A stretch of DNA of 64,000 bases, from sequence record PQ553088; one strand, written 5' to 3'. Source of the DNA: Escherichia phage OES_C-1. The position numbers and the translations under genes were made by a program. How positions within the stretch are numbered: the stretch's first letter is position 1; each line of letters opens with the position of its first letter. The notes below the pieces were generated by a model. It had not been told where the DNA came from, did not search any database, and worked only from the letters and a program-made list of their open reading frames with translations. Shown here piece after piece: positions 1,975 to 18,876 of the stretch.

Positions 1975-2512
1975 TTACTATTTCCAAAAGTTTATTATTT
2001 TTAAGGTAATTAGCCTTTTCTAGGACTTCAGAAGCATATTTAGAACCTGCTTTAACATTCCATCCCGAATTATAAGATGATATTGCTTTTCTTATATCAC
2101 CCTTATGTATATTTAACCAATAAGAAAGTTCAATGTACGCCCAGGAAGCTGAATTGGACCGTTTATTCAACATTCTTTTTATTTCAGCATCGGTCATATT
2201 ATAACCAAGTTCCTTGACTCTCGCTCGCATAGTAGGCAAATAATTTTGGAACATTCCATAGGCATGATGCTTTGGTTTAGATTTTAAATTAACTCCGGCA
2301 GAGCTTTCTTGCCACAAAATAGCAGCCATTATATGACCCAATCCGCTCTTATGGATGTTTTTGTGTGTTTTATATTTTCCATCCTTAGAAAATTGTTCCC
2401 CGAATTGATACGCGTAACGCATGTTATCGAGTTGGACATTACTGAAAGTATGCTCGGAGCTATGTGCCATCATTGAAATGGCCAATAGACCAGCGAGTAG
2501 TGCTTTTCTCAT
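1967..2512 (-). CDS. secreted lytic transglycosylase-like protein (SLT family)
   Basis: 181 aa; signal-peptide-like N-terminus; motifs LWQESS, GMFQ and SSYNSG resemble SLT catalytic motifs. Confidence 0.6.
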   Translation of the reverse strand: MRKALLAGLLAISMMAHSSEHTFSNVQLDNMRYAYQFGEQFSKDGKYKTHKNIHKSGLGHIMAAILWQESSAGVNLKSKPKHHAYGMFQNYLPTMRARVKELGYNMTDAEIKRMLNKRSNSASWAYIELSYWLNIHKGDIRKAISSYNSGWNVKAGSKYASEVLEKANYLKNNKLLEIVND

Positions 2513-2519
2513 GCTTACC

Positions 2520-2981
2520 TCATTGAGTTTTAATTACTGCTTTAGAAGCCTTTCCTGGTAAACGACGACTGTTGATAATTGCCATCCTGCACTGAAGTGA
2601 CGGGTCTTTGAACTTCTCGTTAGGTTTACAAACTGTAAATCCAAGCCAAAGATTTCCATCAGTGATTTCTAAACGTCCAGGACGATATTCAATCCCATCA
2701 ATAAAATCCTCGTCAATATCAGGGCGTGGAGGCATACTCAGGAATTCATTAACTTCTAAAACATGGTCTTTTATTTTATGGAATAATTCAAAAACATATG
2801 TCTCATCAATCTCCCGTTGAATTGCACGATCAAGAAGATGTTGAGAATATTTTAGATGAAACGATGAGACCCCTGCTGCTTTTGATGCCTCACGAATCTC
2901 ATTGTTAATTTGACGAAACTCCGACTCAAAGTGACGACGGAGCTTATTTCGACGGATAAAAACTTCTGTGTTGATAGTCAT
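2520..2981 (-). CDS. regB: RegB site-specific endoribonuclease
   Basis: 153 aa, same length as T4 RegB; position between tk and denV. Confidence 0.75.
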   Translation of the reverse strand: MTINTEVFIRRNKLRRHFESEFRQINNEIREASKAAGVSSFHLKYSQHLLDRAIQREIDETYVFELFHKIKDHVLEVNEFLSMPPRPDIDEDFIDGIEYRPGRLEITDGNLWLGFTVCKPNEKFKDPSLQCRMAIINSRRLPGKASKAVIKTQ

Positions 2982-3040
2982 GTTATTCTCCTCTTAACTG
3001 ATAGAAAAATTATACCACAGTCAAGAGGAAAAGTAAACAG

Positions 3041-3319
3041 TTATTCTTTAAATCTAATCAATTTATTCATAGACTTTGAAACTTCTGCACGGACCTCATG
3101 TAGGTTTTTAAGCTGTTCAAGACGCTGCTCATAGTAAGCAATTTCATCTTCTTCGAGACAGTCCTGTGAATCTTCTTTAAGATAGCGTGCATAGTCCTGG
3201 AAAGCGTTACGGACTACTTCCTGGAAGTCATCAAGACTTTGAATTTTCTTAGGAGCAACAGATACACGACGAGGGGCAGTATAATACTCATAACCAAACC
3301 CTGCGCTTAATTGAGCCAT
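3041..3319 (-). CDS. hypothetical protein (vs.3 position)
   Basis: Track ORF 3041..3361 trimmed to ATG at 3319 (TAATG coupling with upstream stop); start uncertain. Confidence 0.4.
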
Positions 3320-14890: not shown

Positions 14891-14891
<1 letters not shown>

Positions 14892-15616
14892 TATAGTACC
14901 TTTAGTGTATTTTTAATTTTAGAAAAAAGTTCTTCAAGAGAACCATCGTTTGTAATTACTAAATCGCCATCACGAATTGGCAATCCAGCTTCTGTAATAT
15001 GTGTATCATTGGATTTTTGACCAGGACGAACTACATGAATTACTGTAGCACCCATCGCCCTAGCCGCATCCATTTCATGATCTTGACGGGTATCAGGAAC
15101 GATATAATAATCATAACCTGAGTTAAATTTATCAAGATAATCTAAAGCAAATAATTTTACCCAGTACATGCGGTCGAAGTTATTAACAATCAAATCCGTA
15201 CCTAGGGCTTGCATCAGACGACGGACTGACCATTGATCTTCAATATTATTTATAACGTCAGTAATTTTGTTAAATGCTACGAAAGTAACTGATTCCTTTC
15301 CCTCGTCATCAAAAACAAACACACCTTTAATTGGGCTTTTACCATTAAGATAGCAAAATGCTTGTTCCATAATCATAATTACTTCTAATTTAGTCAAATT
15401 CAAATTAGTCTCACGATCATAGTCAATTCCTTCAAACTCTCTACGAGTTAAGCAAGGATAGTCAGTGTTTGCTGCAAATACACCCCATGCATAAGCCAAT
15501 GCATCTTTAATAGGACCAGCAAGTTGATATTTAACTGCAGAATAATTATTCATGATAAAATCTGCAGTAGTATCTTTTCCACTACGCTTTACACCACTTA
15601 AAAAGATTAGTTTCAT
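14891..15616 (-). CDS. 1: deoxynucleoside monophosphate kinase
   Basis: 241 aa; MKLIFLSGVKRSGKDT P-loop; same length as T4 gp1. Confidence 0.9.
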
Positions 15617-15665
15617 GTGTTTCTCCTCAAATTTAGTTAAGATTATAACACATGAAACTGAAGCA

Positions 15666-16196
15666 TTAAACTTCTGCTATAATTTTACCATCTTTTTCTA
15701 CTTGAAAATACGTATAAGGAATCGTTGCTGTACATACTAAAGCTGGGTCTGAATCTTCCGTGTAGCTAAATTCTACTTCAGACAAGTCAGAAACCCAAGG
15801 CTTATAAAAATTTATTGACATCACGATTTCAGTTTTACTATTATCTAAAATGTAAAGCGTAATGTATTCAGGACCTGTTTTTTGGGCAGTATTTTCACCT
15901 GTAAGATAGTTGCTAGTTCCTAGCATCCATTCATACATTCCTATCCACGACTTAAGCTCTTCATCAACTATAAATCTCACAATGAGTGGGTCGTACTCAA
16001 ATGTAACACCTGGACGTTGTGCTCGGCCCAGTCCAAACGGCCCAGTCACGGTATCAGTAACAGGTATTCTAATTCCTGGAATAGGAACTGATTGAGCATT
16101 TAAAGTAAAAGCAGATGTAGTATTACTATGTGGTATTGATACTACAAAGTTAGTTGTATTTGCTTGGTTAAAAATTTGTTGCAGAGCTTGTGACAT
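15666..16196 (-). CDS. 3: tail sheath stabilizer / tail completion protein gp3
   Basis: 176 aa from ATG at 16196 preceded by GAGGAA; same length as T4 gp3; track extension to 16277 rejected. Confidence 0.75.
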   Translation of the reverse strand: MSQALQQIFNQANTTNFVVSIPHSNTTSAFTLNAQSVPIPGIRIPVTDTVTGPFGLGRAQRPGVTFEYDPLIVRFIVDEELKSWIGMYEWMLGTSNYLTGENTAQKTGPEYITLYILDNSKTEIVMSINFYKPWVSDLSEVEFSYTEDSDPALVCTATIPYTYFQVEKDGKIIAEV

Positions 16197-16302
16197 ATAT
16201 TCCTCATAATGCTTTATAAATGTTGGTGGTATAATGGGTCTAAGTCCCTTCCATTCAATTCCAATTAGAACAAACAATAGAAAAGAATGGAAGATAATAG
16301 AA

Positions 16303-16962
16303 TTAATTTATTAGACTTCTTAAACGAGCAGAAGTCATAAATGGAAATTTTTCTAAAGTTGGCTTTCGCCAATATCTTGGATGACAAGTTGATTTAAAAT
16401 CAAGAACAATTTTCTTTGCTTCATCAATAGTGCTAACTCCAAAGTTATCTAACATTATTTTCTTTTCTTTTTCCCACCGTTTATTAGCTAAAGCAGATTG
16501 AAGCTTTTTGTTTTTAAATGTATCATTTTTTCTAGAATGAGTTGTGCCTTGTGTCGGACTCCATCCTCTTCCTAAAATAAATCCCTCAGGAATTATATCT
16601 CCATCATGCAATTTTATACATCTTTTACCATTATTATAATATTTTCGTCCAGTTTGTGTATTTGAAATATTATTTGCATGTTTTCTTTTTAACCAACCAT
16701 AAACTTTATTATTTCTCCTAACATATTTAGTTGAAACCGTCATTTTTATGGCCGCATAAGATAATTTTAAAGAATTTGGGTGTATTTTTACTAATAGTTG
16801 ATGTGCAACATAATGCTCTTCTGGAGTTAAATCAACCAAGTTAGAAGCATCATTACTACCGCCTAAACATTTCGGAATAATATGATGTCTTTCTTTATAT
16901 CCAGTAAGGGCTCTATTGCGAGCCCTATCAATTAGTGAATTATAAATTTTTTCATAATTCAT
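16303..16962 (-). CDS. HNH homing endonuclease
   Basis: 219 aa from ATG at 16962 (ATGA overlap with gene 2 stop); [28 protein letters not shown] motif; sits between genes 3 and 2. Confidence 0.7.
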
Positions 16963-17786
16963 CGTACATTGCTCCAAACTTTGTTTGCAGAGAAACGTTT
17001 TCCTTTAGAGTAGAAGCTTTGGAGTGGCATCAACACAACGTTCGCCCAGTCTTTCGGGGCGATTTCAACAAGGCTACCCATAATATTACCAGGTATATAT
17101 GCCTTAATCATTTGGTCTGCACCCCTAAATCCTTTCACTTGACTCCAATCAATTTTTAATTTCGTTTTATTAGTAATAGTAGGTGTATTTGAATATTGCT
17201 TTAAAAGCTCTTCTAGAAATTGCTGACGAGCTTTAGGTGGAATATAGTGCAAGTTCAATCCATACATTAAATTGTGTTTACCTAAACCAAGGTAAATTAT
17301 CAAAGGAAATTTATCCCAGTAAGGGAGAGTTTCCTTGTGTTTAGCATCATAAGCAAAAGCATATATTCGTCCCGGCTGCGGGCGAACAACTTTATGTCCT
17401 TTTACTTGCTTAATAGTTTCAGCAAACCACTTTCTGGTTTTATTATTAATTGCTGCGCCTTCATTACGAATTTTATCGCGCAATGTTTGCCTGAATGAAT
17501 TTATCATAAGCAGTTGTCTTTCTTGCTTATTGAGTTTATTCATTGGTTTTGATTCAAGCTTTTGAATCTTTTCAGCTGTTTTAATTCCTGAAGCATATTT
17601 TGACATTGCCGAAGTAAACGTAGAGTATTTGATTCCTCTTTCTTCAGCAAATTGCTTTCCTGTCATTCCTTTTGCTTTGGCCTTTCTGTATTCAAGACCT
17701 ATCTGAATCCATTTCTTTTCGTTTAATGATTGCTTAACCTTTGGAACTTGGGGAGTGCTTTCATTAATTATTTGAAAAATAGCCAT
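16959..17786 (-). CDS. 2: DNA end-protector protein gp2
   Basis: 275 aa; position and length as T4 gp2; TAATG overlap with gene 4. Confidence 0.85.
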
Positions 17787-18238
17787 TATGCCCCCTTAAA
17801 GCCAAGAGCTCGTAATCCATCTTCTGTTAGAATTCTAAATTTTATTCCACGCTTTTCAGCTAAAGATTGCGCTGCTTTCCATTTGTCAGTATTAACGGAA
17901 TATGTATAAATTTCATTCATAAATCTTTTCTTCGCTGCAGTTGTTAGATGTGCTGGTTTAACTGGTGGTTGTGTTTCTTTTTTAGGTTTTATTTCAATAA
18001 AAAATTCTTGTCCAGAAGAATCTTTCATCCAAATATCCATGAAGTATCTACGTTTTTTCCCTTCTGCATTACAAAAATAAGGAATTACTGCTGTTTCACT
18101 ACCCCATGCAATAATTTCTGGATTTTTATCTAACCATTCAAAAAAGAATTTTTCCCAATTTGATCTATACGTAATTTTTTTAGGGTCACCTCTATACTTT
18201 GATATATTTTTAGGAACCCATTTTCCAGAATATGCCAT
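17786..18238 (-). CDS. 4: head completion protein gp4
   Basis: 150 aa; position and length as T4 gp4. Confidence 0.85.
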
Positions 18239-18249
18239 TGGATTCTCCT

Positions 18250-18272
18250 TATAAATAGATAATATATTTATA
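18250..18272. promoter_or_regulatory. divergent late promoters (TATAAATA) for gene 53 (plus) and gene 4 (minus)
   Basis: tataaata at 18250-18257 (plus); tatttata at 18265-18272 (minus-strand TATAAATA). Confidence 0.55.
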
Positions 18273-18285
18273 AACAGGAGGGCCC

Positions 18286-18876
18286 ATGCTCTTTACATTT
18301 TTTGATCCGATTGAATATGCGGCCAAAACGGTGAATAAAAACGCGCCGACTATTCCTATGACAGATATTTTTAGAAACTATAAAGACTATTTTAAACGCG
18401 CTCTTGCGGGATACCGCTTACGTACTTATTATATCAAAGGTTCACCACGCCCGGAAGAATTAGCAAATACTATATATGGAAATCCGCAGTTGTATTGGGT
18501 TTTATTGATGTGTAATGATAATTACGATCCGTATTATGGATGGATTACTTCGCAGGAAGCTGCTTATCAAGCATCTATACAAAAATACAAAAATGTAGGT
18601 GGAGACCAAATAGTATATCATGCTAATGAGAACGGTGAAAAATTTTATAATTTAATATCATACGATGATAATCCATATGTTTGGTATGATAAAGGCGATA
18701 AAGCTAGAAAATATCCTCAATACGAAGGAGCACTTGCTGCGGTCGATACGTATGAAGCTGCTGTTCTTGAAAATGAAAAACTTCGTCAAATAAAAATAAT
18801 AGCAAAATCAGACATCAATTCATTTATGAACGACCTTATACGTATAATGGAGAAATCTTATGGAAATGATAAGTAA
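18286..18876 (+). CDS. 53: baseplate wedge protein gp53
   Basis: 196 aa; position and length as T4 gp53. Confidence 0.85.
   Translation: MLFTFFDPIEYAAKTVNKNAPTIPMTDIFRNYKDYFKRALAGYRLRTYYIKGSPRPEELANTIYGNPQLYWVLLMCNDNYDPYYGWITSQEAAYQASIQKYKNVGGDQIVYHANENGEKFYNLISYDDNPYVWYDKGDKARKYPQYEGALAAVDTYEAAVLENEKLRQIKIIAKSDINSFMNDLIRIMEKSYGNDK

Follow-up and report, generated by a model that had tools for sequence, protein, structure and literature searches.

The 219-residue open reading frame (ORF) located between genes 3 and 2 of Escherichia phage OES_C-1 corresponds to RB32ORF146c and in all likelihood represents a free-standing HNH homing endonuclease gene, intact and of the Mob type known from T4, which would act on the 3' end of gene 2 in relatives that lack the element, by the mechanism proposed below. 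The element is an already annotated and typical Mob-type gene and is not new; what the present analysis adds is a testable prediction of its target in gene 2 and the conservation of a mobE-like hairpin early in its coding sequence.

The window, that is, the whole 64,000-nucleotide stretch of record PQ553088 analysed here, is a segment of a Tequatrovirus (T4-like) genome, whose region 15600-17800 shares 99.9% identity with Escherichia phage OES_C-2 and 97.7-99% identity with about 35 other records. By coordinate, the minus-strand order is gene 1, gene 3, the HNH ORF, gene 2 and gene 4, after which genes 53 and 5 lie on the plus strand. The features of this region are as follows:

14891-15616, minus strand: gene 1
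15666-16196, minus strand: gene 3 (tail completion / sheath stabilizer, 176 residues; Pfam Phage_T4_gp19, E 1.4e-12; 100% identity to T4 gp3)
16197-16302, minus strand: gene 2/gene 3 spacer of 106 nt, intact 3' of the element and matching the T4 spacer column for column
16303-16962, minus strand: Mob-type HNH homing endonuclease gene, free-standing, 219 residues plus TAA, equivalent to RB32ORF146c
16959-16962, minus strand: ATGA, in which the gene 2 stop and the HNH start overlap, read from the sequence
16959-17786, minus strand: gene 2 (DNA end protector, 275 residues; 98% identity to T4 gp2; annotated in relatives)
17786-18238, minus strand: gene 4

A first, sequence-only reading of this DNA had described a 219-residue ORF with an HNH motif between genes 3 and 2, coupled to gene 2 through ATGA, and had taken these two genes to be adjacent in T4. 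Each of these points is confirmed: the ORF is present on the minus strand with its HH...N...H motif exactly as quoted, direct reading shows that its ATG (16962-16960) overlaps the gene 2 TGA (16961-16959), and T4 (NC_000866) has a 106-bp spacer containing no ORF between the two genes. In the ORF listing, the HNH frame stays open up to an upstream TTG at 16977. This TTG is rejected as the start: the orthologs all open at the gene 2 stop, with MNY, with MDY or, where TTG is used, with LNY, and the start is therefore placed at the ATG found there. Genes 2 and 3 are complete on either side and an Rfam search over 15600-18400 returns no group I intron and no other family, the ORF being intergenic rather than intron-borne. 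At 29.7%, its G+C content is below that of the whole window (35.8%) and of genes 2 and 3 (36%).

Results of BLASTP comparisons with Mob proteins bear out the HNH homing-endonuclease type that the initial reading had assigned. The N-terminal HNH domain of the protein shares 46% identity with T4 MobE over 112 residues (E 1e-28), and residues 1-126 share 45% identity with MobB (E 2e-30). A second segment, which corresponds to a beta-hairpin motif, aligns with the C-terminal GKKWINNGSECTLIGKDDIIPPGWKRGR of MobE (E 2e-5), and the whole protein matches PHROG 655 'homing endonuclease' (E 9e-59). Three regions of the protein can be delineated:

16801-16887, minus strand: HNH catalytic core, residues 26-54 (H26 H27 ... 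N41 ... H50 ... H54), from the family alignment
16567-16650, minus strand: beta-hairpin motif, residues 105-132, matching the MobE C-terminal segment; presumed DNA-contact module
16306-16524, minus strand: C-terminal four-helix domain, approximately residues 147-219, specific to gene 2/3-site elements

Residues H26, H27, N41, H50 and H54 are invariant in an alignment of 52 family sequences and all are present in the window copy. When the profile of these 52 members is used in place of the single protein, the HNH residues align with the McrA HNH motif YLEVHHVIPLSSGGADTTDNCVALCPNCH (E 0.003) and, less significantly, with Cas8-HNH (E 0.05), while the single-protein sequence search of PDB chains gives no match even at E 10. 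The short-motif HNH models of Pfam are weak; the window protein scores 17.8 bits with PF01844 (HNH) against a gathering threshold of 27.5, and 16.5 bits with PF14279 (HNH_5) against 21.4, and 36 of the 52 relatives match PF01844 at E <=0.01. Both scores fall below the gathering thresholds; membership of the HNH family rests on the motif and on the homology with MobE. Searches of NCBIfam and PADLOC with the HNH protein yield no meaningful family, and no NUMOD domain is matched by Pfam in the window protein; some relatives carry NUMOD3 or I-HmuI_NUMOD-like Pfam domains.

The AlphaFold2 (AF2) model of the protein, which has a mean pLDDT of 90.5, places a strand (24-27), a second strand (42-45) and a helix (47-60) around the motif. 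The HNH core is followed by a beta-hairpin module, a poorly ordered linker (residues 131-155 approximately) and the C-terminal four-helix domain. The beta-hairpin module, formed by strands 106-110 and 115-119 and containing P125 and G127, both nearly invariant in the 52-sequence alignment, is presumed to contact DNA. The C-terminal domain is modelled with pLDDT values of 87-97, and of 87 when modelled separately, and is presumed, by analogy, to be the target-recognition domain. A Foldseek search with the full model returns weak partial matches to HNH domains and no global match, and the model of the C-terminal domain has no Foldseek neighbour in the PDB and no recognisable DNA-binding fold. 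The proposal that this domain is a helix-turn-helix like that of I-TevI or I-HmuI is for the same reason unsupported.

Alignment of the window with RB32, CT01 and T4 over the 3-2 interval shows a net insert of 663 nt relative to T4, where the gene is missing and only the spacer is present. The junctions are clean: the TAA stop of the insert coincides with the gene 2 TAA of T4, and the 106 nt that precede gene 3 are untouched. Population counts rest on the GenBank phage collection, whose records are not phylogenetically independent; there, 36 of 512 matching records hold the full 3-HNH-2 region and 464 display a contiguous, empty 2/3 junction. With a diagnostic query, the element-bearing Tequatrovirus records amount to 37, including the CT01 remnant, among about 500. 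The element is absent from about 92% of Tequatrovirus records, T4, T2 and T6 among them, so that T4 and most of its close relatives have no ortholog at this position, and the general presence that would have refuted the sequence-only reading is not observed. A scan of IMG/VR with gp2 finds only three close T4-like loci, all of them empty.

The 37 carriers are scattered over phages of Escherichia, Shigella, Yersinia and Salmonella hosts, and near-identical copies of the element (at least 97.6% identity) are spread over phages of different hosts and species. The window copy shares 99.5% amino-acid identity with RB32ORF146c (ABI94970.1), from which it differs by 5 nt and a single residue (S177N). 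The GenBank note of the latter reads 'putative site-specific intron-like DNA endonuclease; similar to mobB; not conserved from T4 position', and annotated copies of RB32ORF146c are also found in HY03, RB33, vB_EcoM_112, fPS-2 and others. A 2010 inventory of T4-related genomes (PMC2993671) gives two mob-like HNH genes for RB32. Literature searches, which included the names ORF146c and VR7ORF161c, found no functional study of any copy.

The distribution of the element extends well outside Tequatrovirus. A tblastn search with the whole HNH protein matches more than 1000 phage records, most of them only over residues 1 to about 110, which correspond to the shared Mob HNH domain. With residues 97-219 as query, the matches are limited to 77 phage records with one copy each. 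The gene order 4-2-HNH-3-1, with the HNH start at the gene 2 stop, is found in 12 of 12 sampled non-Tequatrovirus records, and the start/stop junction of the orthologs reads ATGA, TTGA or TAATG. These orthologs represent ten genera: Moonvirus, Gaprivervirus (two), Muldoonvirus, Winklervirus, Kanagawavirus, Dhakavirus (two), Karamvirus, Hadassahvirus (from Acinetobacter), Gualtarvirus and Roskildevirus. In the 12 sampled records, identity to the window protein ranges from 51 to 65%, that of gp2 from 59 to 73% and that of gp3 from 44 to 62%. HNH divergence tracks that of gp2 and of gp3 (r = 0.71 each), and the family has therefore long been associated with this one site. The initial reading had taken the gene for a free-standing homing endonuclease insertion specific to this phage lineage. 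Its free-standing HNH type and its absence from T4 hold, but lineage specificity does not: RB32ORF146c was already annotated, 37 Tequatrovirus records carry the element and orthologs occur in 10 further genera.

Several carriers have mutated copies of the element. The CT01 copy has lost its HNH motif through an in-frame deletion of 486 nt; in FL23 and FL44, the loss of 1 nt at nt 180 truncates the protein after residue 60; the Manna copy has lost its stop codon and its frame continues through the spacer into gene 3 (431 residues); and one codon is missing from the CE1 copy. The window copy is intact and full length. In a linkage comparison of six carrier or remnant and seven empty Tequatrovirus sequences, polymorphism linked to the element is confined to at most 60 nt of flank, whereas all remaining polymorphisms, up to 700 nt away on both sides, are shuffled. 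The low G+C content, the mutated copies and the short linked flank fit a selfish homing element.

The linked flank points to a candidate target. Over the last 230 nt of gene 2, the window and T4 are identical except for two clusters of substitutions, here named blocks A and B:

17007-17024, minus strand: block A, CTCCAAAGCTTCTACTCT (gp2 ...PLQSFYS...) versus T4 CTTCAGCAGTTCGTTTCA (...PLQQFVS...); candidate nick/cleavage site, putatively in its immune form
16959-16977, minus strand: block B, the last 16 nt or so of gene 2, GTTTGGAGCAATGTACGATGA versus T4 GTCTGGTCAAATATCTAA; rewritten in carriers, from alignments

Block A comprises nine substitutions in 17 nt, which change QQFV to QSFY, and is set amid 170 nt and 29 nt that are identical to T4. 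Among the polymorphisms near the junction, only blocks A and B co-vary with the element in the six carriers or remnants and seven empty sequences compared. Block B takes its element form only together with the element, and the empty-site phages whose sequences were inspected have the T4 form. Block A of the element type is found in 37 of 37 Tequatrovirus carriers and also in 15 of the 464 empty junctions, where it is joined to a T4-type block B, about 449 empty junctions being of T4 type. The counts on empty sites were obtained with an 87-nt diagnostic query that leaves a clean gap between the two forms and that replaced an ambiguous 206-nt identity query; for RPN226 and PTE-Eco15, the combination of an empty site with an element-type block A is confirmed by sequence. 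The reciprocal recombinant, in which the element would be associated with a T4-type block A, is found in none of the 37 Tequatrovirus carriers.

The same gp2 codons differ in three within-genus contrasts. In addition to Tequatrovirus, the carrier Serratia phage SP1 has QSFQ where two empty, Muldoonvirus-like IMG/VR genomes (L011/L016) have QQFV, the gp2 C-termini being 96-98% identical and the mismatches clustering 49-64 nt before the stop; and within Karamvirus, the carrier Klebsiella phage KaAlpha has QSFQ where the empty CC31 has QQFM, their gp2 C-termini being nearly the same apart from these codons. Over the sampled lineages, the ratio of non-QQF[V/M] to QQF[V/M] is 10:3 in carriers and 2:8 in empty sites (Fisher p = 0.012). 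The exceptions are the carriers C6 and dhabil (Dhakavirus) and K305 (Kanagawavirus), which keep QQFV or QQFM, as does the empty JS98, and the empty locus L010, which has QSFQ. Block A as part of a contiguous foreign flank that hitch-hiked with the element was considered and set aside, because the 29 nt between the blocks are identical to T4 in the window; this inter-block stretch is furthermore near-identical within Karamvirus and differs between genera. A similar arrangement is found in MobE, whose polymorphic nick site lies beside a conserved coding block of the neighbouring gene and whose carriers are immune by substitution (PMC2790892). From these sequence comparisons, block A is the best candidate for the nick site, and the chances are about even that the enzyme recognises conserved gp2 codons and that its nick or cut falls within QQFV of empty-site genomes, 46-61 nt before the stop. 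Disruption of the site by the insertion itself is an alternative or additional source of carrier immunity.

The same data can be read as the history of an old resident of the 2/3 junction that was lost by T4 and most of its relatives, in which case the pattern would reflect deletion rather than homing. This reading accounts for the orthologs at the same site in 11 genera, for their divergence in step with gp2 and gp3, for the deletion in progress in CT01 and for the 15 empty-site records with an element-type patch, which would be expected after loss by recombination. However, loss alone leaves unexplained the scar-free and precise empty junctions of 464 records, the absence of carriers with a T4-type patch and the scatter of near-identical copies over hosts and species. 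Deletion as the whole explanation is rather unlikely, and since old residence is compatible with ongoing homing, it competes with homing as an account of the element's history and not of its mechanism.

It is improbable, by a wider measure, that the ORF is a decaying or inactive passenger, intact in appearance but no longer cutting and kept by its linkage to the essential genes 2 and 3. The mutated copies in the close relatives CT01, FL23/FL44 and Manna, the Pfam HNH matches below threshold and the outcome of the literature searches, in which no activity study of the element was found, are in keeping with such a passenger. Against it, the window copy is full length, retains every invariant family residue and is separated from RB32 by only 5 nt and one amino acid, and all 37 carriers keep a patch that differs from the empty-site allele. 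Moreover, the orthologs with 51-65% identity keep their length, motifs and C-terminal domain over 11 genera, so that purifying selection must have acted on the protein for a long time.

The expression of the HNH gene would depend on its neighbours, and three signals bear on it:

18265-18272, minus strand: T4 late-promoter box TATAAATA, the sole exact match in the region, upstream of gene 4, from a pattern scan
16972-16975, minus strand: GGAG, a Shine-Dalgarno sequence that precedes the HNH ATG by 9 nt, within the last codons of gene 2
16907-16926, minus strand: hairpin AGGGCUC-GCAAUA-GAGCCCU, nt +37 to +56 of the ORF, codons R13-L19

The pattern scan finds no exact late box and no MotA-type middle promoter in or just upstream of the HNH ORF, and the output of a sigma-70 promoter and terminator scan is at or below shuffle expectation. 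The late box upstream of gene 4 is the probable source, judging from its sequence, of a 4-2-HNH transcript. Taken together, the lack of a detected promoter of its own and the ATGA overlap suggest that the gene is co-transcribed late with genes 4 and 2 and translated by re-initiation. The GGAG arises from a synonymous serine swap, TCA to AGC (T4 TGG TCA AAT versus window TGG AGC AAT). In the predicted RNA fold of 16870-17010 (z = -3.2), this GGAG pairs with a CUCU of gene 2 and the AUG lies inside an 11-bp A/U hairpin, a structure that would tie HNH translation to ribosomes finishing gene 2; the predicted fold is not kept in all orthologs.

The hairpin inside the ORF is more widely conserved, being formed at this position in 13 of 13 orthologs. 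In the ten orthologs that share a common register, 95% of the cells are paired and compensatory changes affect two of the seven pairs; out of 500 shuffles, 1 attains the covariation score, and slid controls pair at 16-52%. In three orthologs and in RB7 mobE, the hairpin lies 3 nt further upstream, and that of RB7 mobE sits on the homologous codons. In T4, the mobE hairpin, 27 nt past the AUG, is a weak intrinsic terminator, as established by 3'-RACE and RNase protection (PMC2790892). Because no U-tract follows the window hairpin, a terminator function is doubtful in its case.

The invariable adjacency to gene 2, the translational coupling and the probable late expression with virion genes might also be expected of a nuclease recruited for a phage function connected with gp2 and DNA ends, such as packaging, or of a weapon directed against co-infecting phages or host DNA, but this is very improbable given that about 92% of viable Tequatrovirus records, T4, T2 and T6 included, lack the gene, that viable phages carry frameshifted or deleted copies, that no defence-system or NCBIfam model is meaningfully matched and that a target site in gene 2 explains the adjacency more simply.

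Homing of a Mob-type element into the 2/3 junction, which we regard as by far the most probable of these readings, can be outlined as follows. The promoterless HNH gene would be transcribed late on the gene 4-gene 2 message, and ribosomes ending at the gene 2 stop would restart at the overlapping ATG, aided by the GGAG that the element's version of the gene 2 end supplies. Near the start of the ORF, the conserved hairpin probably lowers expression, like its counterpart at the homologous position in mobE. During co-infection with a relative whose 2/3 junction is empty, the protein would bind the conserved 3' end of gene 2 and its N-terminal HNH domain would nick or cut there, most likely within QQFV, 46-61 nt before the stop. 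Repair by recombination with the carrier genome as template would transfer the element, together with the immune patch next to it, to the recipient, while the carrier itself would be protected by the nine-substitution QSFY patch, by the rewritten end of gene 2 or by both. By analogy with MobE, SegF and SegG, the element and nearby markers of genes 2 and 3 would be over-inherited. The influence on marker exclusion in mixed infections that the sequence-only reading had proposed is, on the precedent of these same three enzymes, a reasonable inference.

A broader reading is possible, and we put it forward tentatively: the elements would form an ancient Mob-type family that has stayed strictly faithful to its site between genes 2 and 3 across most of the Straboviridae, the repeated change of QQF[V/M] to QSF[Q/Y] in carriers of different genera would mark the exact nick site and the covarying hairpin, which coincides in position with the mobE terminator, would be a family-wide brake on expression that is older than the split between the elements. 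The serine of QSF[Q/Y] is encoded by AGC in some carriers and by TCC in another. If this reading is true, the codon changes in gp2 amount to a set of naturally occurring alleles, some sensitive and others immune.

The practical impact of the element is limited, as it belongs to a known class of selfish elements in a well-studied phage group and its copy is nearly identical to that deposited for RB32. Its value is that of a clean model, in which the predicted target gene is essential and conserved and a compact patch of 17 nt separates the allele predicted to be sensitive from the one predicted to be immune. Phages with an empty site and one or the other allele occur in nature, which makes homing, immunity and the local exclusion of gene 2-3 markers directly testable. 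For the crossing or engineering of T4-like therapeutic phages, the element predicts a biased inheritance of the neighbouring virion genes.

Among known systems, RB32ORF146c is the same gene as the window copy, at the same 2/3 position and with the same ATGA overlap. With MobB, which belongs to the alpha-gt region, the window protein shares 45% identity over residues 1-126, which corresponds to the resemblance noted by the GenBank annotators; the two differ in their locus and in their C-terminal two thirds, and MobB has no 5' hairpin. I-HmuI and I-TevIII are intron-encoded, unlike the window ORF, which lies between genes and has no Rfam match; they resemble the window protein in their modular organisation, with an N-terminal HNH domain and extended DNA-binding modules, the latter being presumed in the window protein.

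The closest functional counterpart is T4 MobE, a free-standing enzyme encoded between nrdA and nrdB (Wilson & Edgell 2009; PMC2790892), which introduces a nick in nrdB, to which immunity is conferred by polymorphism, and whose promoterless gene contains an internal terminator (PMC2790892). The nicking and mobility of MobE have been shown by experiment; those of the window element are predicted. The two also occupy different loci, nrdA/nrdB for MobE and gene 2/3 for the window element, with different target genes; their C-terminal domains differ, the window hairpin lacks a U-tract and the window start overlaps the upstream stop. Despite these differences, their HNH domains are 46% identical and have in common a YNNG...PxG(F/W)xxGR motif, neither gene has a recognised promoter of its own, each relying on the gene before it, a hairpin forms on homologous codons about 30 nt into both ORFs, and in each case a polymorphic patch adjoins a conserved block in the neighbouring conserved gene.

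The element-type QSFY patch of gene 2 (QQFV in T4) is found together with a T4-type gene 2 end in 15 records whose gene 2/gene 3 junction lacks the element. These empty-site records represent 14 phages, including Salmonella phage SG1, Shigella vB_SsoM_113 and 'T4_ev151', and comprise the following two and 13 further ones:

L060 (RPN226), 1239-1256: QSFY patch, empty site
L061 (PTE-Eco15): QSFY patch, empty site

These records resemble empty alleles that are resistant, or products of short-tract conversion.

Several relatives carry altered copies of the element, and one IMG/VR genome has a divergent gp2 C-terminus:

L075 (Salmonella phage Manna), 167-1462: 431-aa ORF joining the HNH frame, the spacer and gene 3 in frame
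L074 (FL23), 804-1462: element copy with a 1-nt deletion at nt 180
L003 (Shigella phage CT01), 2204-2377: 57-codon in-frame remnant, all that is left of the element
L013 (IMG/VR genome), 2501-3307 and downstream: gp2 with C-terminus …KKVWATCLMVMAWTSSGPFYFMD

The Manna fusion results from loss of a stop codon, the FL23 deletion recurs in FL44, and the CE1 copy (L076) is missing one Tyr codon; single-base variants among these copies may be sequencing errors. The gp2 C-terminus of L013 is longer than, and different from, those of its near-identical relatives L012 and L014, a difference that would fit a frameshift close to the end of gene 2. In Gaprivervirus orthologs of the HNH ORF, the apparent start is TTG rather than ATG and overlaps the gene 2 stop, although the GenBank annotation of UPEC07 places it upstream instead:

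L068 (VR7), 1010-1013: TTGA overlap
L005 (UPEC07), 1501-1504: TTGA overlap

In several distant relatives, gene 2 is preceded at a distance of about 1 kb by a second Mob-like HNH gene, whose N-terminal domain is 46-56% identical to the window protein:

L005 (UPEC07), 1-253: just upstream of gene 4
L012, 1337-1663
L013, 1346-1672
L019, 1611-1940

Its presence suggests another homing site within this gene cluster.

Three features of the window may bear on expression around the element:

16218-16226, minus strand: late-box-like TATAAAGC in the 2/3 spacer, with the gene 3 ATG following about 20 nt downstream
16936-16998, minus strand: predicted RNA fold around the HNH start
16907-16926, minus strand: conserved GC-rich hairpin within the HNH ORF, codons R13-L19

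The spacer box resembles the T4 late box TATAAATA without matching it; if functional, it would render gene 3 independent of read-through from the element. In the predicted fold, whose z-score over 141 nt is -3.2, CUCU of gene 2 is the pairing partner of the GGAG box (16972-16975). The start-codon UG lies inside an 11-bp A/U hairpin, UGAAUUAUGAA-AAAA-UUUAUAAUUCA. GGAG is predicted to pair similarly in VR7, though some other orthologs lack such pairing.

The GC-rich hairpin is kept in 13 of 13 orthologs at the 2/3 site, with compensatory base changes among them. It is not followed by a U-tract in the window. T4 mobB has no such hairpin. RB7 mobE carries one on the homologous codons, and a weak intrinsic terminator has been mapped at the equivalent position of T4 mobE (PMC2790892).
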